Positions 51,638 to 63,913 of a stretch of DNA of 64,000 nucleotides are shown piece by piece. Location: assembly GCA_963840855.1 (NCBI GenBank), contig CAWJBB010000030.1:32001-96000 (forward strand), read 5' to 3'. How positions within the stretch are numbered: the first letter of the stretch is position 1; each line of letters begins with the position of its first letter. The translations under genes were made by a program, and so were the position numbers. The stretch is from an uncultured delta proteobacterium. Lineage in GTDB: Bacteria; Desulfobacterota; Binatia; UBA9968. The notes beneath the pieces were generated by a model that searched no databases, was not told where the DNA came from, and saw nothing but the letters and a program-made list of their open reading frames with translations.

Positions 51638-52621
51638 TCACGCCGATTCGAGCAGACCGCGTCGCACTAGATCCTGTGCCAACTTCACCTTGTAGACGTT
51701 GTCCTTCAATGGCTTAGCCCCTTCGAGGGCAATGACACCGGCTTGCTGGGCGACGGTGTCGTCGATCTTCTTGCCACGCAGGAAGGATTCGGCTCCTGGC
51801 GCGCGCCAGGGGATCGGCGCGACGCCGCCGAGGACCAGGCGTGCGTCGCGCGCTACGCCGCCGCTGCTTTGGACGACGGTAGCGACGGCGACGATGGCGT
51901 GATCCCAGGCCTGGCGCTCGCGGACTTTATGATAGTAACCTTTGCTACCGGCTTTCGGTGTCGGAACGAAAATCTCTGTGACGATTTCGCCGGTCTTGAG
52001 AACGTTTTCTCGTCTATAGTCCACCGATGGCAGCACGAAAAATTTCTCTAGGGGAATGGCTCTTTCACCCGCTGGCCCGGCGATCTTAATCTGCGCATCC
52101 AGTGCTACCAGCGCCGGGGCGGTATCCGACGGGTGGACAATGTAGCTCGGCCCGCCGCCCAGGATGGCGTGAAAACGGCCGTCGCCGGTCACGGTGTAAC
52201 AGAGCTGGCCGCCTTTTCGCAGGCAGTTGAAGTTTGAAGAGCGAAAATACCAGCAGAAGGGTCGCTGGCAGATGTTGCCGCCGATGGTGCCGGCGTTGCG
52301 AATCTGCGGCGAAGCTGCTTCACCCGCTGCCGTCGAGAGAATCAGCAGCTTATCACGCACGCCCGGATGATCTTCTACATCCGCCAGGGTTGTCAGCGCG
52401 CCGATACGAAAACCGCCGCGCTCCTCTTTGATCGTATTCAAACCGGGAATGGTTTTGAGGTTGATAACATAGTCGGGAGCCAGAACATCGTCTTTCACGA
52501 GCTGTAACGCTTCGCTGCCGCCGCCGACCACCAGGGCCGGCTTTTTTTCCTGATGGAATTTTTGCAGCAGCGCGACCGCCTGACCTACGCTTTTGACATC
52601 GATATTTTCAAATGACTTCAT
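51638..52621 (-). CDS. Xanthine dehydrogenase family FAD-binding subunit (PaoB/YagS-like)
   Basis: ASPQIRNAGTIGGN; Cys-rich insert CWYFR...C.RKGG..C. Confidence 0.92.
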   Translation of the reverse strand: MKSFENIDVKSVGQAVALLQKFHQEKKPALVVGGGSEALQLVKDDVLAPDYVINLKTIPGLNTIKEERGGFRIGALTTLADVEDHPGVRDKLLILSTAAGEAASPQIRNAGTIGGNICQRPFCWYFRSSNFNCLRKGGQLCYTVTGDGRFHAILGGGPSYIVHPSDTAPALVALDAQIKIAGPAGERAIPLEKFFVLPSVDYRRENVLKTGEIVTEIFVPTPKAGSKGYYHKVRERQAWDHAIVAVATVVQSSGGVARDARLVLGGVAPIPWRAPGAESFLRGKKIDDTVAQQAGVIALEGAKPLKDNVYKVKLAQDLVRRGLLESA

Positions 52622-52636
52622 CGGTTTCTTCCTCCA

Positions 52637-54850
52637 TCAGACCTGGCGCGCCTGCAAGATCTTGTCTGGTGTAATCGGCAACTCTTTGATCCGCCTTCCC
52701 GTGGCGTTGAAGATTGCATTGGCGATGGTCGCCACAGCGGGCGTGATCGGCGGCTCGCCCACTACTTTGCCGCCGAAGGGACCGAAGGGGTCTGGATGCT
52801 CGATAAAGATCACCTCGACCTCGGGCGCTTCCAGATGAGTCGGAACTTTGGCGTCGCGATAGTTGGGGTTGATGGGAATGCCGGTCACGCGGTCGGTGAT
52901 CAACTCCTCGGTAAAAGCCATGCCGATTCCCTGTACAATGCCGCCCTTGATCTGGCTCTCGGCGGCAAGCCGGTTAATGATCGTGCCGGAATCATGGGCC
53001 GCGACGTAGCGCGTAATGCTCACGTGGCCGGTCCAGGTATCGACTTCCACCTCGGCGAAATGCGCCGCGAAGCTTTTGCCTTCCACGTCTTTGAACGACG
53101 GGTTTGTCGTCGCGCGGCCGATGAGTTCACCGGCTCGTGAAACAACGCGCGCCAGTGGAAGCTTGCGTGAGGGCTCGGTCTTGACGAAAACTTCGCTGTT
53201 TCGCAGGTCCAATTCTTCCGCTTTAGCTTTTAATTGCCCGGCCGCAAGAGCAAAAATTTGCCGCCGCGCATCTTCGGCGGCGGCGATTACCGCCGGTCCG
53301 GTAAAAGGGGTCGTTCGGCTACCCGACTCGCCGACGGAATAAGGCGTCACATCGGTGTCACCGTTGGTAACCTGAAACTGATTGAGCGGAACACCGAGGG
53401 CCTCCGCGGCGATGATCGCCATGGTGGACTTGGCTCCGGTGCCGATGTCTGTGACACCGACTAAGAGATGCGCCGTGCCGTCGGGATTGACACGAATGGT
53501 CGCGGCCCCAAGGCCGGGCCGGAAAGGATATCCCCCCAGCGCCATACCGATGCCGTGCTTCTTAGCATCGCCCATGGCGCCCGGTTTATGCCATTTTTCT
53601 TGCCAGCCGATGCGCTTCGAACCTTCGACGATGCACTCGTCTAAATGATTTGAGGTGAATGGAATCTTGCTCTTGTACTTTTGAATCCGGTTCTTCGTGA
53701 ACATGTCGAGCGGGTTGAGACCCATCTCGTGGGCGATGTGATCGAGAAATGACGCAAAGCCGAAAACCGACTGCGGGTACGCCGGCGCGCGGTAGTTGGC
53801 GCCCACCACCGTGTTGGTGTGCACCGGTTTTATGTGCTTCTTGAAATTGGCGATCTGATAAAAATCGGTGCCGCTTAGGTTGCCGCTGGACTTCCGATAG
53901 GCGCCGACGTTGGTGACCGCGTCGAGGGAAACGGCCGTGATAGTGCCGTCTTTTTTCACGCCGATTTTGTATTTTTGCTCGGATGCCCAGCGGCCATGCA
54001 TGCCGATGTAGTCATCCTCTCGGGTGAACTCCAGTTTCACCGGCTGGTTGCAAATCCTGGCAAGCGCCGCCGCCATGTAATCGTAATCCTGCGCCTGGTT
54101 TTTGTTGCCGAAGCCGCCGCCCATATATTTGCACACGATGCGCACTCTGCTGAGCGGCAAATTAAAATCTTTAGCGATGTCCGTACGCGCATTGGAAACT
54201 CCCTGGGTGGAGGCGTACACGGTCAATTTGCCGGAATCCCATTTGGCGATGCTGACGCGCCGCTCGAGCTGCGCGTTGTTGGTATGCTTGGTAATGTAGG
54301 TATCTTCGAAAACCCGGTCCGCATCCTTGAAGCCCTGGTCGAGGTCGCCCCACGATTCTTCAATGGGGGCGCTGAAGTTGCCCTTGCCGACGGATAGATT
54401 GCCGTCGGTGGATATCTTCGGCGCGTCGGGCTTGAGCGCTTCATTAGCATCGAACACATGGGGCAACTTTTCATATTTGACTGCGATCAGCGCCAGCGCC
54501 TGCTCGGCGATATGCCGGTCCGTTGCCGCCACCGCCGCCACCGCGTCGCCGACGAAACGAACCGGGTTGTTAAAAATGAAGCGCGGGTGCGTGTGGCCGC
54601 CGCTGGACCAGGGAATCATCGCGTTGCCATGATGAATCACTGCCTTCACCCCCGGCAGTTTTTCGGCCTTGGATGCATCGATGCCGATGATTTTGGCGTG
54701 CGGGTGCGGGCTGCGCAAAACGCGCGCGTAGAGCATGCCCGGCAGCTGAATGTCGCCTGTATATTGCGCCTGACCGGTGACGCGTTCGTAGGCGTCGATA
54801 CGCGGGATTTTTTTGCCGACGACGGAAAATTCTTTTTGTGCCTGTGCCAT
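52637..54850 (-). CDS. Xanthine dehydrogenase family molybdopterin-binding subunit
   Basis: GGGFGNK, YRAP, GESGSR, QIKGGIVQGIG, VGEPP. Confidence 0.94.
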   Translation of the reverse strand: MAQAQKEFSVVGKKIPRIDAYERVTGQAQYTGDIQLPGMLYARVLRSPHPHAKIIGIDASKAEKLPGVKAVIHHGNAMIPWSSGGHTHPRFIFNNPVRFVGDAVAAVAATDRHIAEQALALIAVKYEKLPHVFDANEALKPDAPKISTDGNLSVGKGNFSAPIEESWGDLDQGFKDADRVFEDTYITKHTNNAQLERRVSIAKWDSGKLTVYASTQGVSNARTDIAKDFNLPLSRVRIVCKYMGGGFGNKNQAQDYDYMAAALARICNQPVKLEFTREDDYIGMHGRWASEQKYKIGVKKDGTITAVSLDAVTNVGAYRKSSGNLSGTDFYQIANFKKHIKPVHTNTVVGANYRAPAYPQSVFGFASFLDHIAHEMGLNPLDMFTKNRIQKYKSKIPFTSNHLDECIVEGSKRIGWQEKWHKPGAMGDAKKHGIGMALGGYPFRPGLGAATIRVNPDGTAHLLVGVTDIGTGAKSTMAIIAAEALGVPLNQFQVTNGDTDVTPYSVGESGSRTTPFTGPAVIAAAEDARRQIFALAAGQLKAKAEELDLRNSEVFVKTEPSRKLPLARVVSRAGELIGRATTNPSFKDVEGKSFAAHFAEVEVDTWTGHVSITRYVAAHDSGTIINRLAAESQIKGGIVQGIGMAFTEELITDRVTGIPINPNYRDAKVPTHLEAPEVEVIFIEHPDPFGPFGGKVVGEPPITPAVATIANAIFNATGRRIKELPITPDKILQARQV

Positions 54851-54862
54851 GACGACCTCCTG

Positions 54863-55480
54863 TTAGCGAGCCTTCGCCGCGGCGAGTACCGCCGCGACCT
54901 CGCGGTTGTAGTTGCCACAGCGGCAAAGATTGCCCGATAGCCCGCGCCGCACTTCGGCTTCCGTCGGATTGGGCTTCTTCAGCAGCAATGCCTTGCCCGA
55001 CATGATCTGCCCCGGCGTGCAAAAGCCGCACTGCGGGCCGTCATGTTCGATAAATGCCTCCTGGACCGGATCGAGCTTGTCGCCCTTGGCCAGGCCCTCG
55101 ATGGTGAGAATCTCTTTGCCCTCCATCCACACCGCCAGCTGGCTGCACGAATACAGGTTGCGGCCGTTGATCATCACGGTGCAAGCGCCGCACTCGCCGC
55201 GGTCACAGCCGATCTTGGTGCCGGTGAGGCCGAGCTGGTCGCGCAGCACTTCGGCAAGCGTATTTCGGTGCTCGACTTCGACTTTATAATTCTTACCGTT
55301 GACTTTTAGGCTGAGAGTCGACCTCCCCCGCGCCGTCCCCACCGCTTCTTGGGTATAAGCCTCGACCTCGTCGGGCTTGACTAACCCCGTAGAGACCACG
55401 GCGGTGCCGATGGCCCCGCCGCCGATGCCTTTGAGGAAATCGCGCCGCGATACCCCTTTGCCATTTCTTTCTGCTTCCAT
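54863..55480 (-). CDS. [2Fe-2S] subunit with a Tat signal (PaoA/YagT-like)
   Basis: SRRDFLK; GCDRGECGACT; QCGFCTPG; CRCG. Confidence 0.94.
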   Translation of the reverse strand: MEAERNGKGVSRRDFLKGIGGGAIGTAVVSTGLVKPDEVEAYTQEAVGTARGRSTLSLKVNGKNYKVEVEHRNTLAEVLRDQLGLTGTKIGCDRGECGACTVMINGRNLYSCSQLAVWMEGKEILTIEGLAKGDKLDPVQEAFIEHDGPQCGFCTPGQIMSGKALLLKKPNPTEAEVRRGLSGNLCRCGNYNREVAAVLAAAKAR

Positions 55481-55620
55481 AATATGCTTGCCTCCTTCGC
55501 TCCCTGTTAACAGGAATTGATTTGGGAGTGATCAAAGCTTCCACGGAACGGGTATCGCTGTCAATGGAAAAATTCGCCTTGCCGCCTCGGAGCAAAATCG
55601 CTAAACTTCCCCGCAAAGCC

Positions 55621-56547
55621 ATGGCGGACGAAACCCGGCTCATTTCCGAAGGCGCAGCACTCGATGAGTTCCTCGACGAACTTCAACGGGAACAACAGGT
55701 TAAAGAGATCGCTGGTTGGGATACCGCTTTTGCCAATCTCACCCGCGCCCTGGACGGCATCCTTCCCGGTCTTTATCTGCTTGTCGGGCCGGCGGCCTGT
55801 GGAAAGACGTCATTCGCCAAACAACTGCTGGATCAGGTGGCCATGCGTAACGATGCCATCGGAATTTTCTTCAGCTTCGCCGAATCCAAGAATGAACTAA
55901 GAATCAAAACCCTCGCGCGCTTGAGCGGCATCGAGACCAGGGAGATACGCCGCGGCAGCGCCTATCTACTCCATTGGTACGGCGTTCCTCGGCTACGCGG
56001 CAATGAAACCGAGCAACTCTCGCCCAGTTGGGAGAGGGTAAGACACGCCGCCGAAGGCGCGAGGACCTGGTTGGATTCGATATTTTTGCTGGAGTGCGGC
56101 GCGGGCACGACAACGGCAGCGTTGGAGGCGCATATGCGCGAGACTCGCGCGACAACGAATAAGCGAAAAATTATCGCTGTGATCGACGACTGTCAACGGC
56201 TTGGCGGCGATCAACCGTTACAAGCGCGCCTCCCGCTGGTGACCGAGCGGTTGCAGTCGCTGGCCAAGAATACGAACGCGGCGCTGCTTGCCGTCTGGCC
56301 CGACCTCCGGGAAAACGGAGAAATTGCACCGCAAACATGGGCCGAAAGAGCGTTGGGAACTGACGTCGTCATGGTCATGGAAGCCGACCCGGAGCGAACC
56401 AAGAAGCTTACAGAGCCCAATCAGGCGCTGATCCTCAACATCGTCAAGAATCGAGGTGGAGAAAGGGGTAAATTGGCCTTCGACTTTCTGCCCGCTTTCT
56501 CGCGGTTCGTCGAGGCGGCTGAAAATCGACAAACTCGCTCGCTATGA
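55621..56547 (+). CDS. DnaB-like RecA-fold ATPase, C-terminal domain only
   Basis: Walker A GPAACGKT, Walker B VIDD, KNRGGERG. Confidence 0.8.
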   Translation: MADETRLISEGAALDEFLDELQREQQVKEIAGWDTAFANLTRALDGILPGLYLLVGPAACGKTSFAKQLLDQVAMRNDAIGIFFSFAESKNELRIKTLARLSGIETREIRRGSAYLLHWYGVPRLRGNETEQLSPSWERVRHAAEGARTWLDSIFLLECGAGTTTAALEAHMRETRATTNKRKIIAVIDDCQRLGGDQPLQARLPLVTERLQSLAKNTNAALLAVWPDLRENGEIAPQTWAERALGTDVVMVMEADPERTKKLTEPNQALILNIVKNRGGERGKLAFDFLPAFSRFVEAAENRQTRSL

Positions 56548-56935: not shown

Positions 56936-57715
56936 TCAAGCTTCCGGTGAGAATTTTTGGTGGGGTTCTATAAGCGGCGACTCCCACTGGTAGCATCGAA
57001 TCGGGCGCGGATCGCCCTGTACTACTAGTGCCCCCTGGTATCCGACACAAAGAGTAAGCTCGGTTAGAGACCAGTCGGGCACGCTCGCATTAATCCGTAC
57101 CTGTTGATCAGCAGCCAGGGTAATTACAACTTCATCGAGCTTGCCCGACAAGCCCGTACCCTTAGCCTTTAAGAACGCTTCTTTGCTGGTCCAACATTTG
57201 AAGAAAGCTTCGCGCTGAAGCGTTTGCGGCAACTCGCATAGCGCCGCGACTTCTTTGGTGGTAAAGAACCGCCGGGCAAGCTCGTCGAAAGAAAATTGCC
57301 TCTTGACGAATTCCACATCGACGCCCACCGCTCTCTGCCGAGCGACGGCAACCAATGCGACCTCGTGGGAGTGGGAGAGATTGAACTCCAAACCGCCTGC
57401 GGCTTGTGGCGGAGCGAGCGCGGGTTTGCCTTGAGGTCCTGAGACAAAGTGAATCTCATCCGCGGCAACTCGCAGGTATTTAGCCAATAGCGAGCGCAAA
57501 GCGACATGGGCGGCGATATAAAGCCGGCGGTCTTTAACGAACTTGAACCGCGCGGCTCGCTCTTTCTCCTCTTCCGATAGGGACGTGGCCAAAAGGTCAG
57601 GGGGAATATCTTTCGCGCCAGCATTAACCAACCAGACATGAACTTCGTCGTCGTTCAGTTCGACGGCGTTAGGTGGCAAAGGCCAAAGGTTATCGGAACA
57701 TTCCGCGGCGGCCAC
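56936..57715 (-). CDS. Sfp-type 4'-phosphopantetheinyl transferase
   Basis: GKP, FNLSHS, VGVDVE, WTSKEAFLKAKG. Confidence 0.93.
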   Translation of the reverse strand: MAAAECSDNLWPLPPNAVELNDDEVHVWLVNAGAKDIPPDLLATSLSEEEKERAARFKFVKDRRLYIAAHVALRSLLAKYLRVAADEIHFVSGPQGKPALAPPQAAGGLEFNLSHSHEVALVAVARQRAVGVDVEFVKRQFSFDELARRFFTTKEVAALCELPQTLQREAFFKCWTSKEAFLKAKGTGLSGKLDEVVITLAADQQVRINASVPDWSLTELTLCVGYQGALVVQGDPRPIRCYQWESPLIEPHQKFSPEA

Positions 57716-57919: not shown

Positions 57920-58201
57920 TTAGCGCGAGAGCTTGCGGTTGCTCAAGCGGTAAATGAAGGCGAGGATTTCAGCCACCGCTTTGTAGACCTCGGCAGGCAC
58001 TTCCTGATGGAGATCGAGGCGGGAAAGAATCTGCAAAAGGTTTTTGTCCTGGCGAATGGGGATGTCGTGTTGTCGCGCCAGCTCGAGAATTTTCTCGGCG
58101 AGGTAGCCGCGCCCTTTGCCGGTGATCTTCGGCGCCCGGTCTTTCTTGGGCTCGTAGCGCAGTGCCACCGCTTGTTTTTGCTTGTTCGTCGATGGGTCCA
58201 T
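57920..58201 (-). CDS. FlhB C-terminal-domain-only protein (FlhX/YlqH-like)
   Basis: AVALRY...APKITGKGRG.LAEKI...IP...YKAVAEILAFIY. Confidence 0.92.
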   Translation of the reverse strand: MDPSTNKQKQAVALRYEPKKDRAPKITGKGRGYLAEKILELARQHDIPIRQDKNLLQILSRLDLHQEVPAEVYKAVAEILAFIYRLSNRKLSR

Positions 58202-58202
58202 G

Positions 58203-59375
58203 TCAGGCCTTCATGTCGAGCAGGTGCATCGAAGACGGCGCGCCCACCGCCAGCGCCGCGAATTTTTCCTGCTTCTCTTGCGACAATTCCCTGAGCGGCT
58301 TTGCCGCCAACAGCACATCGCGGTAGCCGAGCGCCATCAGCATTTCACGGAAGCCCGGCAACTCTTGCCGGATCAACCGTAGAGATTCCTCGCGATCTAG
58401 ATAGAACACCGCGCGTAATTCCTTGGCGTCGATATGGGCGTCGATGCGCGTGCGCCCGAAGTTTTCCAAATCGAGGAGAAAGAGCAGGGAGTAGCGGCCT
58501 TTTTCCCTGGCTTGATTGCCCGCCGGACCGTGGCCGTCCTGTTCCACCGCCAGCGCCGCGGTGGAGAACCCGGCGCCGGTGAAAAAAGGAATCTGCATTC
58601 GGAAAGCGCCGCCGTCCAGTTGCGCCACCAGGTTAACGGCTTGCTGGGTCTCAAGATTGTCGAGCTGGGCGCTGAGAGCGTTCTGCAGACCGGCAGAAAA
58701 CGCTCTGGCTTTAGCCTCTTGCAGCGCGGAAAGCAGTAAACCTTTAAGATCGTGATCAGGGATTTCCGGCAACTGCTCGGGATCATGCGCCGCCGCATCG
58801 AAGAGTTTGGCCTCGTAAAAAAGCCCGCCGTCCCGGGCCAGAACTTCGAGCTTCTCCGGAGTGGGCGGTGTACCGCCGGCCAAAAGCGTTGCAATCGAAT
58901 CGCGCAGTTTCGCCAGCTTGTCTGGGGTCGGGGCGGTGTCAGTCCGTGGATCGACGTAGGCGGCCAATTCGAATTGCAAAGAATCCATCAGTTCACCTGA
59001 GTCGGCGTGGGCCGGCAGACGGGTGCGGAGTAACCGCGCTGCTTCGGATTCAATGGTGGGTTCGAGATCGGTGATATGGAGCACGACGTTGGGCTGGAGC
59101 TGCTCTACGCGCAAGCGCACCTGTTGCCCGGCGCCAAGTCCGCCGGGGCCGTCGGCTTCAATCAATGTAGCGCCAATTTTCACCAGCAACCGTCCGCCGT
59201 CCAACTCTTCCAGGACGAGGGCGTCAAGTTCCTGTCCGAGTTCCAGCGGCGGCAACGCGCCGGTTGCCCCATGTTGGGAAACCAGATTGCGCGGCACCCG
59301 GTCGTTGTTGGCCGAGGTTATCTCCTGCCCTTGGACGAGCGGCGCGGAGACGGATTTGGGCGCGTCGATTCTCAC
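58203..59375 (-). CDS. FliK-like protein (hook-length-control C-terminal domain)
   Basis: GLFYEAKL, DLKGLLL, QIPF, LDLENFG; directly upstream of the FlhB-C gene. Confidence 0.75.
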   Translation of the reverse strand: MRIDAPKSVSAPLVQGQEITSANNDRVPRNLVSQHGATGALPPLELGQELDALVLEELDGGRLLVKIGATLIEADGPGGLGAGQQVRLRVEQLQPNVVLHITDLEPTIESEAARLLRTRLPAHADSGELMDSLQFELAAYVDPRTDTAPTPDKLAKLRDSIATLLAGGTPPTPEKLEVLARDGGLFYEAKLFDAAAHDPEQLPEIPDHDLKGLLLSALQEAKARAFSAGLQNALSAQLDNLETQQAVNLVAQLDGGAFRMQIPFFTGAGFSTAALAVEQDGHGPAGNQAREKGRYSLLFLLDLENFGRTRIDAHIDAKELRAVFYLDREESLRLIRQELPGFREMLMALGYRDVLLAAKPLRELSQEKQEKFAALAVGAPSSMHLLDMKA

Positions 59376-59451: not shown

Positions 59452-59790
59452 TTAGGCCAGCTTTTCATTCTGGTTTTCCGCGCCGCCTTTTACAATCACC
59501 CGATTGCCGTCGCGGCAGATGTCCAGATCGCAGGGACCGTTAAAGAAAATCATCGTGCGCGGGTGCTCATAGACCGTTGTCTTGTGCGGAATTTCCTCGA
59601 CGTAAATGTCGAAGATCGTGCCTGCAGGCAGGTTGACGGTTTTCGTGTGCATGAGGTCGCCTTCGAAGATAACCTCGATCCAGGAGCGGTTCTCCGAGAC
59701 GGCGAGAATGACACCGGCGGCGTTTTTAATCGTCGCGATCGGTTCTTCAGCGCCAGCGTCATTCATATTGCCAGGATTGAAGCTTTTCAC
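59452..59790 (-). CDS. Hypothetical beta-rich protein
   Basis: 112-aa ORF co-oriented with its neighbours; start uncertain. Confidence 0.6.
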   Translation of the reverse strand: MKSFNPGNMNDAGAEEPIATIKNAAGVILAVSENRSWIEVIFEGDLMHTKTVNLPAGTIFDIYVEEIPHKTTVYEHPRTMIFFNGPCDLDICRDGNRVIVKGGAENQNEKLA

Positions 59791-59881: not shown

Positions 59882-61411
59882 CTAATTAGCCAGCAACGTC
59901 TGGGCGTCACGGATCGTCTTGCCGGATGACGTGCGCGGCAGCGACTCGCGTATGACAATTCGATCGGGCACTTTGAAGTTAGCCAGATTGGAGCGCAGAA
60001 AAGTCAGCAGTTCTTTCTCAGCGACACTGGCGCCCGACCGCGGCACGACGGCGGCGCCGATCACTTGACCGCGTTTCGGATCAGGGATCGCGAAAACGAT
60101 CGTCTCCTGGACGCCGGGATAAGTGTAAATCAGATTCTCAACCTCCGCCGGATAGACGTTGAGGCCGCCGGTGATAATCATGTCGTCGCGCCGCCCCAGA
60201 TGATAATAATAGCCATCGGCCTCGCCCTTGCCGACATCCCCGGTATGGAGCCATTCGCCGTGGATGCGCTCCGCGGTGGCCGCGGCCTTGCGAAAGTATC
60301 CTTTCATCACGTGCGGGCCGCGAGTGATGATCTCGCCTGGTTCGCCCACGGGAACTTCGTTGCCATTCTCGTCGACGATCCTCACCTCCACTCCGGGAAC
60401 CGCCCGTCCAATGCTGCCCATCTTGGTCACCGCCCGTTCGGGTTCAACCAGCGTGATTAGCGGCGAAGTCTCGGTAAGCCCGTACCCCTGTATGACTTTG
60501 ATATGGGGCTGTGCCTGCTTGAAAGCTTGCAGCAGCGGCAGCGGCACGCTGGTGCCCATCATAGCCGCGATTTTGACGCTGCTGGTATCGTAGTCGGCAA
60601 GGTTTTTTACGCCCAGTATCAATTGAAAAATAATCGGCACGCCTTCGAAAACCGTCACACGGTGTTTCTGAATCCCCTCGAGCAGCGTGATGGGGTTGAA
60701 CTGATCGAAGATCACGAGCGTATAGCCTTTTTCGGCGACTTCGTTGCACACGATGGGTCCAACGATATGTGACATGGGCAGAATGCAGCCGCGCATGGTA
60801 TCGGAATCGGTGACACCCATGTCGCCCATCACCGCCGGGTATTGCGTCAGGTTGTGATAGCTCAAGACCACGCCCTTGGGCTCGCCGGTGGTGCCCGAGG
60901 TGTAAAGAATCAGCGCGTCGTCGCCCGGCTTCAGCTTCGGTGGACTTAAGGAGGTCGCCGGCGCCGCAAATTTTGCCTCGAAGCTCCGTTCACCGGCAGC
61001 GCCGACGATCCACAGGGGGATCCGCGCCATCGCTTTGAACAGCTCCTCGACTTCGGGTAGTAACTGGTTATGCACCACCAAAAGTTTGAGATCGGCATCC
61101 GTCAAGACGTTTTGCAGCTCGATTCCTTTGAGCCGCGCATCGAGGATGACGGTGACGGCGCCGATCTTTTGCGTGGCGTAGTAGCTCAGGGGAATGGCCG
61201 TGGAATTCGGCAAGAGAACGCCCACCCGATCGCCTTGGCGGATGCCCTCCTGTCGCAGATGGCCGGCCAATGCGTGCACGCGCTGATTGAGCGCGGCAAA
61301 AGTAAGCTCTTCTTCCTTGGCGATGATCGCCGTCTTGTTCGGCTTGCGCTCAGCCGTCTTGTCTAACAACTCCGCCGCGTAAAAGCCTACTGAATGGGTA
61401 TCGTTTGCCAT
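59882..61411 (-). CDS. AMP-forming long-chain acyl-CoA ligase family protein
   Basis: YTSGTTGEPKG, GYGLTE, TGD, GRRDDMI, PRTSSGK. Confidence 0.93.
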   Translation of the reverse strand: MANDTHSVGFYAAELLDKTAERKPNKTAIIAKEEELTFAALNQRVHALAGHLRQEGIRQGDRVGVLLPNSTAIPLSYYATQKIGAVTVILDARLKGIELQNVLTDADLKLLVVHNQLLPEVEELFKAMARIPLWIVGAAGERSFEAKFAAPATSLSPPKLKPGDDALILYTSGTTGEPKGVVLSYHNLTQYPAVMGDMGVTDSDTMRGCILPMSHIVGPIVCNEVAEKGYTLVIFDQFNPITLLEGIQKHRVTVFEGVPIIFQLILGVKNLADYDTSSVKIAAMMGTSVPLPLLQAFKQAQPHIKVIQGYGLTETSPLITLVEPERAVTKMGSIGRAVPGVEVRIVDENGNEVPVGEPGEIITRGPHVMKGYFRKAAATAERIHGEWLHTGDVGKGEADGYYYHLGRRDDMIITGGLNVYPAEVENLIYTYPGVQETIVFAIPDPKRGQVIGAAVVPRSGASVAEKELLTFLRSNLANFKVPDRIVIRESLPRTSSGKTIRDAQTLLAN

Positions 61412-62382
61412 AGCGCAAATGCCCTTTGAAATGGTTTATACCAGCGCGAAAGTTGCGCCAGTTCGCCGCGTTTGAGTTTCAATTTTCCCTGCTGAGTGGC
61501 GAGAAACGGATCGATGCGCGCGCGAAATACCGCTTCCCACCACTCAACTTTGCCGCTGATCATGAATTCGCCGCCAGCGCTCGGTAGAAGCTCGGTGATC
61601 TCACCATTCAAATATCGCACCGTCCAGGCGTCATTAGTTTCTTCGAGATGGAGCGTCAACGACGTCGTGAGCGCCGTGTCGGCGCCATGGGCGCGAAATT
61701 GGGAATCTTGATTCGCCGAGTCGACCAGCGCCTGCATGTGTTCCTTGGAGAATAGCGCGAAACGCTCACCCGACGCCGTCGCGGCGGGTTGTTCCGGCCT
61801 TGCGCTTGTCGATGCCGCGGCGGCAATCTCCGCTTTCTCGATAAAGAATTGACACTGCACCGCTTCTTCCAGCAAATCGGTGTAGAGGAACGCCTCCTGG
61901 AAATTCTTGCCGATGGCGACCGTGCCATGACCCTTGATGATCACAACTGGATTGTACCTGAGTGCCTCCACTACTTCTTCGGGTTTGGTCACCGTCGGCG
62001 TGTCCTGCGCAATGACGGACACCTTGCCGATGGTATATTTTTCTTCGTAACTCACGGGCGCGAAGCTGTCGTGGGTGAGAGAAAACGCCAGCACCATCGG
62101 CGGGTGGACATGGACGATCGCTTGGGCATCCGTGCCGTCGTAAACCGCCAAGTGCATCGGTGTCTCGCTCGACGCGCGCAGGCCCTTGCGCGCCGGCTTG
62201 CCATCCGATTTCAGCCTGACCAAATCTTTGGGCGCGAGAAAACCCAGTGGCGCGTGCTGTCCGGTGATCAGAAAATCATTCTTACCGACGCGGCAACTCA
62301 AGTTACCGCCCCAGCCGCTGATGAGCCGCCGCTCGAAGAGCAGCTTGCCCCAGCGAATCATTTCGCTTTCCGGCTTGGCCAT
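61387..62382 (-). CDS. Class II aldolase fused to an SCP2 sterol/lipid-binding domain
   Basis: GGNLS, SSETPMH, VHVHP, IKGHG; C-terminal IDPFLATQQGKLKLKRG. Confidence 0.88.
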   Translation of the reverse strand: MAKPESEMIRWGKLLFERRLISGWGGNLSCRVGKNDFLITGQHAPLGFLAPKDLVRLKSDGKPARKGLRASSETPMHLAVYDGTDAQAIVHVHPPMVLAFSLTHDSFAPVSYEEKYTIGKVSVIAQDTPTVTKPEEVVEALRYNPVVIIKGHGTVAIGKNFQEAFLYTDLLEEAVQCQFFIEKAEIAAAASTSARPEQPAATASGERFALFSKEHMQALVDSANQDSQFRAHGADTALTTSLTLHLEETNDAWTVRYLNGEITELLPSAGGEFMISGKVEWWEAVFRARIDPFLATQQGKLKLKRGELAQLSRWYKPFQRAFALWQTIPIQ

Positions 62383-62395
62383 TCACTAACCCTGA

Positions 62396-63913
62396 CTAAT
62401 CTTTGAACAATCCCCAGGGAACTACTTCCTCCTCAACGGACCGAACGGCAACGCCGGCGGGGCAGATCTTTTTACCCATGAAGGTCGAAACGTCGCTATC
62501 ACGCGGCGAATCGCTGCGTTCGTCGCCGTTGAAGAGTTCGATGGGCACACCATGCAGACGCGCTAGCTGTACGGCTAGGAGCGATCCGCAGATCCCTGTC
62601 GGCCCTGCTTCGCCCAGGCTACCGTAGAAAAGGCAAAGCTTGAGAATCTCCCCCTGGGCGAATAGCGCACCCATCATGTTGTCCGAAATTAAAGTCGTAG
62701 GCACATTGCGCTCGAGCAGATCCCGCGCGACTACCCGGGCGCCCCAGAGCTGTGGCCGCATCTCGGGGACGAGAACGCTCTCAGCCCGATCTGCCTTTAA
62801 CGCGCTAAGCAAGAATGAATATTGACTCTTTGGCGGAACGCCGTAGAGCAAAATATATTTGCCGCTCGCCTCGCTCTGATTGTCATCGGCTTCAACCTTA
62901 CCCTGATACTTCCGGCAAAAAGATTCCGGCGTGTAGAGATCGTCGAAGCCGACTAAGTGCGTGATCAACGCCGCCGGCGTCATATCGAACGATGGGTAAC
63001 GCGCGCTAAGCCCGCTTAGCCCTCCGGCAACCAGCGGTTGTCCGTCAAAAATCAGCAACTCATGAGCCGGGCGCTCCTCGATACGCACGTCGGTACCGCG
63101 TTCAAGCGAGCGTGGATCTTGTACCAGAGCGTGGAAAGGCACGCCGTACTCCTTTGCCAGCCGCGCGATGGGGTAGGTGCCAACCTTGTTGATGATGTCG
63201 CCATTGCGCGCCGTACGATCCGCGCCGACGATCACGCCGTTGACTTCGCCGTTGGCCATCACTTGCGCGATCGCACAATCGGGGATCGACGACACTGGCA
63301 CGCCCGCTTGTGCGAGTTCCCAAGCGGTCAACCGCGTGCCTTGTAAGTAAGGCCGCGTCTCGGTGGCGATCACGCTGAATTCTTTCCCAAGCTCTTTGCA
63401 ATGCCGCGCCACCGCGACCAATTCGCCGCTCACGTTACAGTGCGTCAGCACGCGGGCCGGATTTGGTAAGATTGCGGCTGCGCGCTTGGCCCGCGCGTGG
63501 CGCCCGCGCACGATCTGCTGGGCCAACTCGAGCGCCTGGCGCGCGATGGTTTCGCCGGCGCCCGCGTCCTGCGGCAACTTCTTACACCATTCTTCGAAGT
63601 AAGAACCCAGGCCCTGGAAATCGAAAGTTGGCCGGGCCGCGCAAAACTGCTCCGTCATCTGGGACAGGCTCCGGCTGAGCGGCGCGGCGTCCACGCCAGA
63701 GTAATTTTGCGCCACCAAGGCGCCGCTGTAAAGAAAGGTCAGTACCTGGCCGAAGGCACGGGTCTTCATGTCGCGCACGGCATCCAGTGCCTGGGCGACT
63801 TCGCTAACATGAATGTACTCAATCTTCTCGGGAACTTGAATTTCGTCGAGAATTTCAAAGCCCCGCCCGCGCCACAGAACCGGCTCGAACAGGGGGCTTT
63901 GAGCGGCGCTCAT
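62396..63913 (-). CDS. MtnA-like (eIF-2B family) ribose-1-phosphate isomerase with an extra degenerate C-terminal domain
   Basis: ARPT, LTHCN, ETRPYLQGTRLTAWEL, VGADR, NKVGTY, PSFDMTP; second copy EMRPQLWGAR. Confidence 0.88.
   Translation of the reverse strand: MSAAQSPLFEPVLWRGRGFEILDEIQVPEKIEYIHVSEVAQALDAVRDMKTRAFGQVLTFLYSGALVAQNYSGVDAAPLSRSLSQMTEQFCAARPTFDFQGLGSYFEEWCKKLPQDAGAGETIARQALELAQQIVRGRHARAKRAAAILPNPARVLTHCNVSGELVAVARHCKELGKEFSVIATETRPYLQGTRLTAWELAQAGVPVSSIPDCAIAQVMANGEVNGVIVGADRTARNGDIINKVGTYPIARLAKEYGVPFHALVQDPRSLERGTDVRIEERPAHELLIFDGQPLVAGGLSGLSARYPSFDMTPAALITHLVGFDDLYTPESFCRKYQGKVEADDNQSEASGKYILLYGVPPKSQYSFLLSALKADRAESVLVPEMRPQLWGARVVARDLLERNVPTTLISDNMMGALFAQGEILKLCLFYGSLGEAGPTGICGSLLAVQLARLHGVPIELFNGDERSDSPRDSDVSTFMGKKICPAGVAVRSVEEEVVPWGLFKD

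Follow-up and report, generated by a model that had tools for sequence, protein, structure and literature searches.

We analysed a 64,000-nucleotide stretch of DNA (the window, positions G000:C30:32001-96000, where G000 is the source genome) and describe here three tightly linked genes in it, which encode an MtnA-family isomerase, an aldolase fused to an SCP2-fold domain and an acyl-CoA ligase. On balance, and judging from sequence comparison, we favour the reading that these genes form the central part of a specialised paralogue of the dihydroxyacetone phosphate (DHAP) shunt, which would convert a 5'-modified, probably purine, nucleoside to DHAP and an activated acid, and which is tied to a B12-binding radical S-adenosylmethionine (SAM) enzyme. 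Together with a nucleoside phosphorylase, the three genes recur as a module in Binatia, in Omnitrophota, in loci labelled Planctomycetia and in others. The strongest functional tie that we found is that the B12 radical SAM gene is adjacent to the module across phyla and shares its distribution where the two are unlinked. A first-pass annotation of the window had proposed a route like the DHAP shunt for a 5'-substituted ribose phosphate, with oxidation and ligation as later steps, and had offered adenosylhopane as one specific guess at the source of the substrate. Our results are in line with the route and speak against adenosylhopane.

The source genome is metagenome-assembled (7.1 Mb, 94% complete, 8.3% contamination), and related loci carry the label Candidatus Binatia. 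In the following, G-numbers denote genomes and L-numbers fetched loci. Taxonomic distributions were taken from a class sample of 201 genomes, which includes G000, and a phylum sample of 151 genomes, and matches to the isomerase, HpnH and the B12 radical SAM enzyme were accepted at E <= 1e-60.

A gene module conserved across phyla

The operon order in G000 is MarR, iron-sulfur (Fe-S)/CCG oxidoreductase, nucleoside phosphorylase (PNP), isomerase, aldolase-SCP2 and ligase, of which the first three genes are just outside the window (Table 1). The isomerase and aldolase genes are separated by 13 nt (62383-62395) and the aldolase and ligase genes overlap by 25 nt (61387-61411), exactly as the first-pass annotation had read them. 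The PNP gene lies 169 nt on, past the end of the window, and was absent from the 64-kb view on which that annotation was based. It completes a DHAP-shunt-like gene set. Also upstream of the PNP gene are the MarR regulator and a divergently transcribed metallo-beta-lactamase-fold (MBL) gene. A scan for promoters and terminators gave no operon-delimiting signal that clearly exceeded shuffled controls.

The linkage of the three genes, on which the earlier interpretation had been built, is conserved. All 14 isomerase-bearing loci in a first set from species-representative genomes show the order MarR (with the divergent MBL gene), Fe-S/CCG, PNP, isomerase, aldolase and ligase wherever the contig extends that far, and the ligase is usually trailed by a small open reading frame (ORF), orf112, and then by an Sfp-type 4'-phosphopantetheinyl transferase (PPTase). 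Their identity to the query is 48-93%, and although some carry other labels, they belong to the Binatia type. Relatives of the aldolase-SCP2 fusion were found in at least 280 stretches of species-representative genomes. We took the best 80 loci, three of which (L001, L005 and L010) were already within the first set, and counted the 77 new ones, 58 of them Binatia-type and 19 others. The 58 Binatia-type loci repeat the module order, with the ligase present in 54 and the Fe-S/CCG gene in 45, the misses falling mostly on shortened contigs. A search with a DNA pattern specific for the isomerase subfamily matched at least 118 stretches; 80 loci were fetched, among which 55 have a subfamily isomerase and 25 are chance matches without an MtnA-like gene. 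The PNP gene is directly upstream of the isomerase in 50 of these 55 loci, and the aldolase gene is downstream of it in 45.

The 19 loci labelled Omnitrophota or Planctomycetia show one longer co-directional operon. It begins with PadR, ligase, PNP, isomerase, a separate half-domain ORF, aldolase-SCP2, aldehyde dehydrogenase and B12 radical SAM enzyme, and continues with an unknown gene, an ApbA-type reductase, two ketosynthases, a cyclase and an SRPBCC gene, sometimes joined by major facilitator superfamily, short-chain dehydrogenase/reductase (SDR) and amidohydrolase genes. The ligase was found in 15 and ketosynthase genes in 14 of the 19 loci. An aldehyde dehydrogenase directly follows the aldolase in all 19, which fits the order of oxidation and then ligation that had been suggested from the window. 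Between G000 and Omnitrophota the identity is 41-45% for PNP, 39-42% for the isomerase, 32-37% for the aldolase and 31-36% for the ligase. In the complete genome of Candidatus Velamenicoccus archaeovorus (CP019384), whose cluster is located around 1.657-1.678 Mb, an ORF of 77 amino acids (aa) after the ketosynthases (L293:19721-19954) has a GVDS motif which, judged by eye, resembles that of an acyl carrier protein (ACP).

Some loci also have neighbours of lipid-export type. Genes for MMPL proteins (HAE3-type) occur in L020, L218, L221 and on contig C12 of G000, in three cases alongside LolA-like/DUF1329 and DUF1302 genes. The group on C12 (G000:C12:7942-14362, L223) consists of MMPL, BNR/Ycf48-like, DUF1329/LolA-like and DUF1302 genes and resembles the module neighbours in L020 and L221. 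Such neighbours raise the question whether the pathway could run in the biosynthetic direction, so that an aldehyde and DHAP would be joined, isomerised and coupled to a base to give a 5'-alkyl nucleoside or a polyol lipid head group. Class II aldolases and nucleoside phosphorylases are reversible. The clustered aldehyde dehydrogenase, however, belongs to the non-acylating family (Aldedh, about 1e-165 to 1e-171) and points towards the acid, the ligase fits the same logic, and the cluster contains no conserved acyl-CoA reductase. We therefore consider a biosynthetic direction highly improbable and keep to the degradative reading of the module as a specialised DHAP-shunt paralogue.

Pieces nearly identical to G000 (0-1 mismatches) were found in assemblies of four metatranscriptome runs on soil or rhizosphere, which belong to three studies. 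They cover all three genes and orf112, for example at 60205-60513, 61500-61650, 62522-62669 and 59542-59785; these matches are short contig fragments, and stretches without coverage carry no meaning. This is consistent with transcription of the module in nature, although RNA libraries can carry DNA. A peak of RNA-contig depth at 60786-60939 was rejected as a signal of the module, as the loose ends on both sides show that it stems from the conserved AMP-binding motif of many other organisms. Our literature searches found no paper describing the module, and the terms methylthio, polyketide, radical SAM and lipid do not occur in the Omnitrophota survey PMC10066038.

A remodelled isomerase with an extra half-domain

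The isomerase does not reach the NCBIfam equivalog model for MtnA (TIGR00512, 220.3 bits against a cut-off of 279) or NF004326 (247.4 bits against 271), and passes only the broad eIF-2B_rel model TIGR00524 (186.9 against 185.85 bits). A quick maximum-likelihood tree, built from 51 sequences, sets apart a clade of canonical MtnA (SH-aLRT 98) that includes none of the 26 subfamily rows. The canonical MtnA of G000 itself (L018:7795-8829, 344 aa) falls inside that clade, whose sister, with weak support, is P0267, a sequence in which the motif has diverged to RGLGQ.

We read the motifs of the isomerase from residue-level alignments to the solved MtnA-family chains 1t5o, 1t9k and 4ldq and from an alignment of 21 sequences (A1). 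The first-pass annotation had noted a retained catalytic Cys in THCN, a retained Asp in GADR and four phosphate-binding residues, R/R/Q/K, and all of these hold up across the family: R52, R94, C159, D232 and K243 are invariant in A1 and Q191 is at least 90% conserved. With the help of the alignments to the solved chains, we take these residues to be equivalent to the catalytic and phosphate-binding sites of Bacillus subtilis MtnA. The reported change of RGAP to RAFG is likewise real, as KTRAFGQV is found where canonical enzymes have RGAPAIG. Two further canonical motifs are replaced, RPTAVNL by RPTFDF and NPAFD by YPSFD. The loop after THCN is altered as had been claimed but is not wholly deleted; it is shortened by seven residues (THCNVS-GELV compared with THCNAGALATxGYGTALG). 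The signature of the subfamily is thus MKTRAFGQV, RPTFDF, THCNVS-GE with the seven-residue deletion, and YPSFD. RAFGQV and the deletion are common to the whole subfamily and are not found in the canonical sequences of A1, including the MtnA of G000. Both changes affect positions, the Pro of RGAP and the loop after THCN, that we assume to line the methylthio pocket of canonical MtnA.

The AlphaFold2 (AF2) model of the isomerase is confident (pLDDT 90.3, pTM 0.90), and in Foldseek its first ~345 residues have TM-scores of 0.79-0.83, normalised to target length, to the ten best-ranked chains. Among the solved MtnA-family chains in this range are 4ldr, 4ldq, 2yvk, 2yrf, 6a34, 1t5o and 1t9k. The protein is about 160 residues longer at its C-terminus than MtnA. 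This extension matches positions 110-174 of the IF-2B profile, and the model predicts confident alternating strands and helices for residues 353-462. The half IF-2B domain is fused to the isomerase in Binatia and is a separate ORF of about 160 aa, between the isomerase and aldolase genes, in most of the loci labelled Omnitrophota or Planctomycetia. Three such ORFs (L020:7936-8421, L023:7956-8462 and L024:5500-5985) have 29-30% identity to residues 347-488 of the isomerase. Since MtnA-family proteins dimerise through their Rossmann-like domain, as PMC4787765 describes, a reasonable guess is that the extension acts as a pseudo-dimer partner.

An aldolase fused to a lipid-carrier fold

The catalytic Glu and three His residues that the first reading of the window had assigned to the aldolase are kept throughout the family: E73, H91, H93 and H152, and also N27 and S29, are invariant among 18 members (alignment A4). 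The protein scores 136.6 bits on the NCBIfam 'aldolase PRK08660' model (cut-off 203), the model of its aldolase domain superimposes on FucA 2fk5 over 186 residues with Z 27.2 and a root-mean-square deviation (rmsd) of 2.2 A, and the family profile matches the 5-deoxyribose pathway aldolase DrdA (6btd) at 2.1e-23.

A low-confidence linker in the AF2 model (residues 189-197) joins the aldolase to the second domain. For the window protein alone the Pfam family SCP2 (PF02036) stays below threshold, reaching 15.2 bits (E 0.029) where 21.3 would be required. Orthologues pass it with 27.0, 25.9, 28.0, 24.5, 34.5 and 29.8 bits, SCP2 is found at E <= 0.01 in 10 of the 18 family members, and the family profile matches the solved SCP2 chains 1wfr and 2cx7 at about 1e-4. 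In the model of the fusion (pLDDT 89.2) residues 208-329 match Thermus thermophilus SCP2 (2cx7_B) with Z 18.6 and an rmsd of 1.7 A, aligning 120 of 130 residues. Other SCP2 chains (eukaryotic, archaeal and UbiJ-type) give Z 7.4-10.2, with the yeast, human and archaeal ones at Z 9-10. Judged by this modelled fold the SCP2 domain proposed for the aldolase is genuine. A stand-alone SCP2 gene is found near the module in L022 (L022:7906-8298). The SCP2 fold, the extra SCP2 and SRPBCC genes and the MMPL and LolA-like neighbours in some loci make a lipophilic 5' group on the nucleoside plausible but unproven.

A distinct phosphorylase

The PNP is nearest to the uridine phosphorylase and DeoD-type PNP models, well under the cut-offs of both. 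It retains the phosphate-site motifs GNGGR and RIGSCGS. Its N-terminal His, H27, is invariant in the subfamily and an SD motif is also kept. Where T. thermophilus PNP has FEMEAS, the subfamily has an invariant DMV(T/S)S (alignment A3). We assume that the SD motif marks purine-type enzymes, that H27 corresponds to the His which binds the 5'-hydroxyl in Escherichia coli PNP, and that the second Glu of FEMEAS-type motifs binds the 2' and 3' hydroxyls of ribose in the PNP superfamily.

In line with such a role of H27, the module could serve the ribose of ordinary nucleosides, with ribose-1-phosphate isomerised to ribulose-1-phosphate and split to DHAP and glycolaldehyde, which would go on via glycolate to glycolyl-CoA; in a variant, a 5'-C-alkylated nucleoside that keeps its 5'-hydroxyl would give a 2-hydroxy acid. 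The aldolase matches the haloarchaeal ribulose-1-phosphate aldolase model NF053831 weakly (64.7 bits), but several other models outscore it. Neighbours of a 2-hydroxy- or 2-oxo-acid type recur, namely ApbA/PanE-type reductases, the GlcF-like Fe-S/CCG protein and an FAD_binding_4 oxidase beside the B12 enzyme of G000, but the likeness of the Fe-S/CCG protein to GlcF is not a close one (17 bits). In its plain-ribose form this explanation also leaves the SCP2 domain and the B12 enzyme without a role, and the assignment of the His is our presumption. We regard it as improbable and prefer a nucleoside with a modified 5' position.

The ligase, and why the module is unlikely to be a housekeeping route

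Among 109 NCBIfam models the ligase matches PRK06187 (long-chain-fatty-acid--CoA ligase) best, with 440.1 bits against a cut-off of 476. The nearest solved chains are feruloyl- and fatty-acyl-CoA synthetases (8wev, 8weu), FadD5 and FadD13, and not acetyl-CoA synthetase. We predict that it is an AMP-forming acyl-CoA (or acyl-carrier) ligase of FadD type.

Genes for base removal, an IF-2B protein and an Aldolase_II protein stand consecutively in G000, the arrangement expected of a DHAP shunt. Elsewhere the genome has MtnP (319.6 bits, cut-off exceeded) and the canonical MtnA, which keeps both RGAP and the entire loop, and its other class II aldolase-family genes number 15. Because of these genes and the FadD-like ligase we regard the cluster as a specialised paralogue and not as the housekeeping route. 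The housekeeping explanation nevertheless deserves attention. It would have the module dispose of 5'-deoxyadenosine and/or methylthioadenosine, giving DHAP and acetaldehyde or methylthioacetaldehyde and finally a CoA ester such as acetyl-CoA, and the module would be maintained next to a B12 radical SAM enzyme in heavy use. In its enzymes the module corresponds to the DHAP shunt and the 5-deoxyribose pathway, as set out in PMC6079011, PMC12632272 and PMC10986504. The profile match of the aldolase to DrdA agrees with this, and a radical SAM enzyme, the kind of enzyme that releases 5'-deoxyadenosine, is the constant partner of the module. Yet MtnP and a canonical MtnA are already available in G000, and further IF-2B homologues exist in all five other module genomes examined. 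The isomerase stands in a clade of its own and differs in its active-site region, the ligase is not of the acetyl-CoA synthetase type, the conserved SCP2 domain would have no role for acetaldehyde, and nothing would explain why, of many radical SAM enzymes, the module is tied to this one. We consider by-product disposal unlikely, if far from negligible, and return to the specialised route in asking what this partner enzyme may contribute.

The B12 radical SAM enzyme

In 16 of the 19 non-Binatia loci a B12 radical SAM gene is adjacent to the module or at most 10 kb away. No radical SAM gene is found within the module cluster of G000. The orthologue of the B12 enzyme of the Omnitrophota clusters is located on another contig of G000 (C10:39706-41187) with a full-length identity of 36-42%, compared with 22-27% for the next-best matches in that genome. 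In the class sample this orthologue occurs in 14 of the 201 genomes, 13 of them among the 14 module-positive genomes and one among the 187 module-negative ones. The two exceptions are G167, which is 96% complete and has the module without the B12 orthologue, and G331, a genome of the same family (87% complete) with the B12 orthologue and without the module. All five module genomes of the phylum sample, which are G000 and four from other families, have the orthologue, and in G087 and G127 it is adjacent to the isomerase gene.

In G000 the B12 gene is followed by genes for an SDR, an FAD_binding_4 oxidase, a haem-oxygenase-like iron enzyme and an O-methyltransferase-like protein (G000:C10:39706-45292, L222:9707-15293). 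This gene group may represent an unlinked second half of the pathway in Binatia. Both Omnitrophota ketosynthase queries match one and the same FabF-like ORF in G000. As no Omnitrophota-like ketosynthase pair is evident in this genome, the module and the B12 enzyme appear to be a portable unit to which the polyketide-type genes do not belong.

The adjacent B12 orthologues are nearest to BchE and HpnJ among NCBIfam models, far under the cut-offs. The best solved relative is AprD4 (6fd2, 6e-9), which is not a close one, and a look-up in the Atlas returned only unnamed B12/radical SAM clusters.

Endogenous hopanoids do not explain the module

The specific guess of the first-pass annotation was that the ribosyl side chain of adenosylhopane or phosphoribosylhopane is cleaved to a C32 hopanoid aldehyde, and the resulting acid activated by the ligase. 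Some of the evidence is favourable to it. On contig C40 of G000 there are shc (808.8 bits), hpnH (543.9 bits) and an hpnG-like gene that scores 183 bits where its cut-off is 187.1, so that on paper the organism makes extended hopanoids; the proposed chemistry would yield a C32 acid, and the SCP2 fold would suit a polycyclic lipid. About 8 kb from these genes a class II aldolase domain is found in an open frame of 1333 aa (G000:C40:208080-208598).

The distribution of the genes is at odds with this guess. The isomerase is present in 14 of the 201 class genomes, namely G000, 12 of the 13 others of family f1 and one of the two in f78, and was not found in the remaining families of the sample. HpnH is present in 126 genomes, 125 of which exceed the family cut-off; the total includes G243, an unpublished module-negative and HpnH-positive genome on which no conclusion rests. 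Only four module genomes (G000, G176, G277 and G317) have HpnH, compared with 122 of the 187 module-negative genomes, and it was not found in the other 10 of the 14 module-bearing Binatia genomes, which are 92-100% complete. Outside Binatia none of 10 module genomes, including the complete genome of Candidatus Velamenicoccus archaeovorus, has Shc or HpnH over cut-off. The PNP of the cluster scores 21.6 bits on the HpnG model TIGR03468 (cut-off 187.1) and hence is not HpnG, and the hpn genes of G000 are on a different contig from the module. Because HpnH and Shc do not track the module and the cluster PNP is not HpnG, endogenous adenosylhopane is not the substrate of the family. The adenosylhopane guess is hardly credible and, as the general function, largely refuted; its sole remaining form would be the scavenging of exogenous adenosylhopane by soil Binatia, which nothing supports. 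An enzymatic origin of C32 hopanoic acids from adenosylhopane likewise finds no genomic support in these data.

A proposed pathway

Building on the observed gene order, conservation, catalytic residues, folds and co-distribution, we propose the following scheme for the preferred reading, a specialised shunt for a 5'-modified nucleoside; its reactions, the direction of flux and the nature of the 5' substituent X are our predictions. The relative of hexameric-type purine and uridine phosphorylases would phosphorolyse the nucleoside, which is probably a purine one. The MtnA-like enzyme, acting through Cys159 and Asp232, would isomerise the 5-substituted ribose-1-phosphate to the ribulose-1-phosphate, and the metal-dependent aldolase would split the C3-C4 bond to release DHAP and an aldehyde X-CH2-CHO that retains C4', C5' and the 5' substituent. 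The aldehyde would then be oxidised, by the clustered aldehyde dehydrogenase in other phyla and by an unlinked enzyme in G000, and the acid activated by the FadD-type ligase. The B12 radical SAM enzyme G000:C10:39706-41187 would most likely produce the nucleoside itself or belong to the pathway that does. A hydrophobic 5' substituent is suggested by the SCP2 domain, and in the genomes labelled Omnitrophota or Planctomycetia the activated acid probably primes a ketosynthase/ACP system. The shunt logic that had been proposed from the window draws support from the fact that phosphorylase, isomerase and aldolase keep their catalytic residues and are adjacent across phyla.

Several points weigh against this scheme. 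The activities and the substrate of the module are predicted only, from the encoded proteins. B12 radical SAM enzymes usually methylate, and no member of this group is known to form a 5'-C-substituted nucleoside. In five further genomes of the phylum sample the B12 enzyme was found but no isomerase reached the threshold used, at which short forms may have been missed. In Binatia the co-distribution with the B12 enzyme reflects some two lineages (family f1 and genus g119), and the counts therefore overstate independence. The sugar, or the way in which it is bound, may be unusual because the PNP subfamily has DMV(T/S)S instead of the ribose-binding E-M-E motif. The Fe-S/CCG gene of G000 is split over three reading frames, implying two frameshifts; it is intact as one ORF of 410 aa in the relative L019, and the broken gene could be an assembly error or a real pseudogene. 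Lastly, the modelled SCP2 fold would show that there is a hydrophobic cavity but not what occupies it.

A more specific version of the scheme is tentative, and we consider it unlikely. The B12 enzyme might add the 5'-deoxyadenosyl group of SAM to a hydrophobic acceptor, or alkylate C5' of an adenosine derivative with it, and the module might then trim the adduct down to C5' and C4'. The adenosyl group would so act as a two-carbon (acetaldehyde-equivalent) donor, turning an unactivated lipid into a C2-extended acyl-CoA. This product would prime the ketosynthase system in Omnitrophota and have another fate in Binatia. If true, it would mean a new way of forming C-C bonds and an oxygen-free activation of hydrocarbons or lipids.

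Neighbouring genes

Downstream of the ligase, orf112 was found by tblastn in most Binatia-type loci, and an Atlas look-up gave weak AMIN-domain leads (0.88). The PPTase gene is downstream in 11 of the 14 first-set loci and in 24 of the 58 Binatia-type loci, with or without intervening flagellar genes, and it is uncertain whether it belongs to the module. Between orf112 and the PPTase gene in the window are a gene for an FlhB C-terminal domain (93 aa) and a FliK-like gene (390 aa), at 57920-59375. We rejected these flagellar-type genes as part of the module; since only one or two of the 14 loci match the greater part of their length, they look like an insertion into the neighbourhood of the cluster. 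At 51638-55480 the window encodes a three-subunit molybdenum hydroxylase of the xanthine/aldehyde oxidoreductase family, with a large subunit of 737 aa, a 2Fe-2S subunit and a probable FAD subunit. It was considered as the missing aldehyde oxidase and rejected, being beside the cluster in only two of the 14 loci (L008 and L013). A stand-alone DnaB_C/KaiC-like ATPase gene (341 aa, 55522-56547) is located between the molybdenum hydroxylase and PPTase genes.

Table 1. Features of the module and its surroundings. Positions are those of the window unless a contig is named.
Feature	Position	Strand	Details
MtnA-family isomerase ORF	62396-63913	(-)	505 aa; Pfam IF-2B in two stretches
Catalytic isomerase part, residues 1-345	62879..63913	(-)	Pfam IF-2B 8.7e-55
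Extra C-terminal domain, residues 346-505, partial second IF-2B Rossmann-like	62396..62878	(-)	Pfam IF-2B 7.4e-8
Aldolase-SCP2 ORF	61387-62382	(-)	331 aa
Class II (metal-dependent, FucA/DrdA-type) aldolase domain, residues 1-188	61819..62382	(-)	Pfam Aldolase_II 2.1e-38
SCP2-fold domain, residues 208-331	61387..61761	(-)	AF2 fold match; Pfam sub-threshold
Acyl-CoA ligase ORF (predicted)	59882-61411	(-)	509 aa; Pfam AMP-binding 4.4e-88, AMP-binding_C 3.2e-18
Small ORF orf112, 112 aa	59452..59790	(-)	No Pfam match; 3' of ligase in Binatia-type loci
Sfp-type PPTase	56936..57715	(-)	Pfam ACPS 7.9e-17, AASDHPPT_N 1.5e-12
PNP	G000:C30:96083-96880 (L017:284-1081)	(-)	PF01048 (PNP_UDP_1) 6.4e-34
Fer4/CCG iron-sulfur oxidoreductase	G000:C30:96820-98045 (L017:1021-2246)		Upstream of PNP

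Relation to known systems and significance

The closest described systems are the phosphorylase variant of the DHAP shunt, consisting of MtnP, MtnA and Ald2 in Rhodospirillum rubrum, R. palustris and extraintestinal E. coli, and the DrdK/DrdI/DrdA system for 5-deoxyribose disposal in Bacillus thuringiensis, as presented in PMC6079011. The module shares with them the three predicted steps, the homologous families (MtnA-type with Cys and Asp, FucA/DrdA-type with three His and Glu) and the adjacency of the genes. Unlike in the DHAP shunt, its phosphorylase is a relative of hexameric PNP and uridine phosphorylase and not MtnP, and its isomerase is a distinct clade with RAFGQ for RGAP, the seven-residue deletion and the extra half IF-2B domain. 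The aldolase furthermore has an SCP2 domain, a FadD-type ligase and, elsewhere, an aldehyde dehydrogenase would extend the route, and there is the tie to the B12 enzyme.

There is also a resemblance to the fluorometabolite pathway of Streptomyces cattleya, which leads from 5'-fluoro-5'-deoxyadenosine via fluoroacetaldehyde to fluoroacetate. That pathway uses a phosphorylase, an MtnA-like isomerase, a fuculose-type aldolase and an aldehyde dehydrogenase in the same order, starts from a 5'-modified adenosine and ends in a two-carbon-derived acid. The SCP2 domain, the ligase and the B12 radical SAM enzyme of the module have no known counterpart there. No fluorinase or chlorinase was seen in the clusters, although no search was aimed at either.

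The futalosine (MqnE/MqnB) and hopanoid (HpnH/HpnG) routes both rely on a radical SAM enzyme that joins the 5'-deoxyadenosyl radical to an alkene; the base is then taken off by a member of the PNP superfamily. The module would share with these routes a C5'-linked adenosine adduct, processing by a PNP_UDP_1 protein and the retention of ribose carbons in the product. It differs in that its partner has a B12-binding domain and is BchE/HpnJ-like, far under the cut-offs, that the sugar would be removed by isomerase and aldolase, and that HpnH and Shc do not co-occur with it.

This work adds an explicit test of the link to hopanoids, with a negative outcome, the finding that in Binatia the B12 enzyme shares the distribution of the module although the two are unlinked, and the isomerase subfamily with its fused or split half-domain. 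One practical consequence concerns annotation, as some 'methylthioribose-1-phosphate isomerase' and 'L-fuculose-phosphate aldolase' entries in metagenomes are probably wrong in their substrate. The known role of the DHAP shunt is one of housekeeping, dealing with two by-products of SAM. The module would be a diverged copy of it that has a phosphorylase of its own, a remodelled isomerase to which a further domain is added, a lipid-carrier domain on the aldolase and a ligase that activates acids. Hundreds of uncultured species from several phyla conserve the module, and it tracks one B12 radical SAM enzyme. It points to a 5'-modified nucleoside metabolite, and to the trimming of nucleosides as an unrecognised way of supplying activated acids. 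In Omnitrophota such an acid could prime an uncharacterised ketosynthase pathway to a lipid or polyketide.

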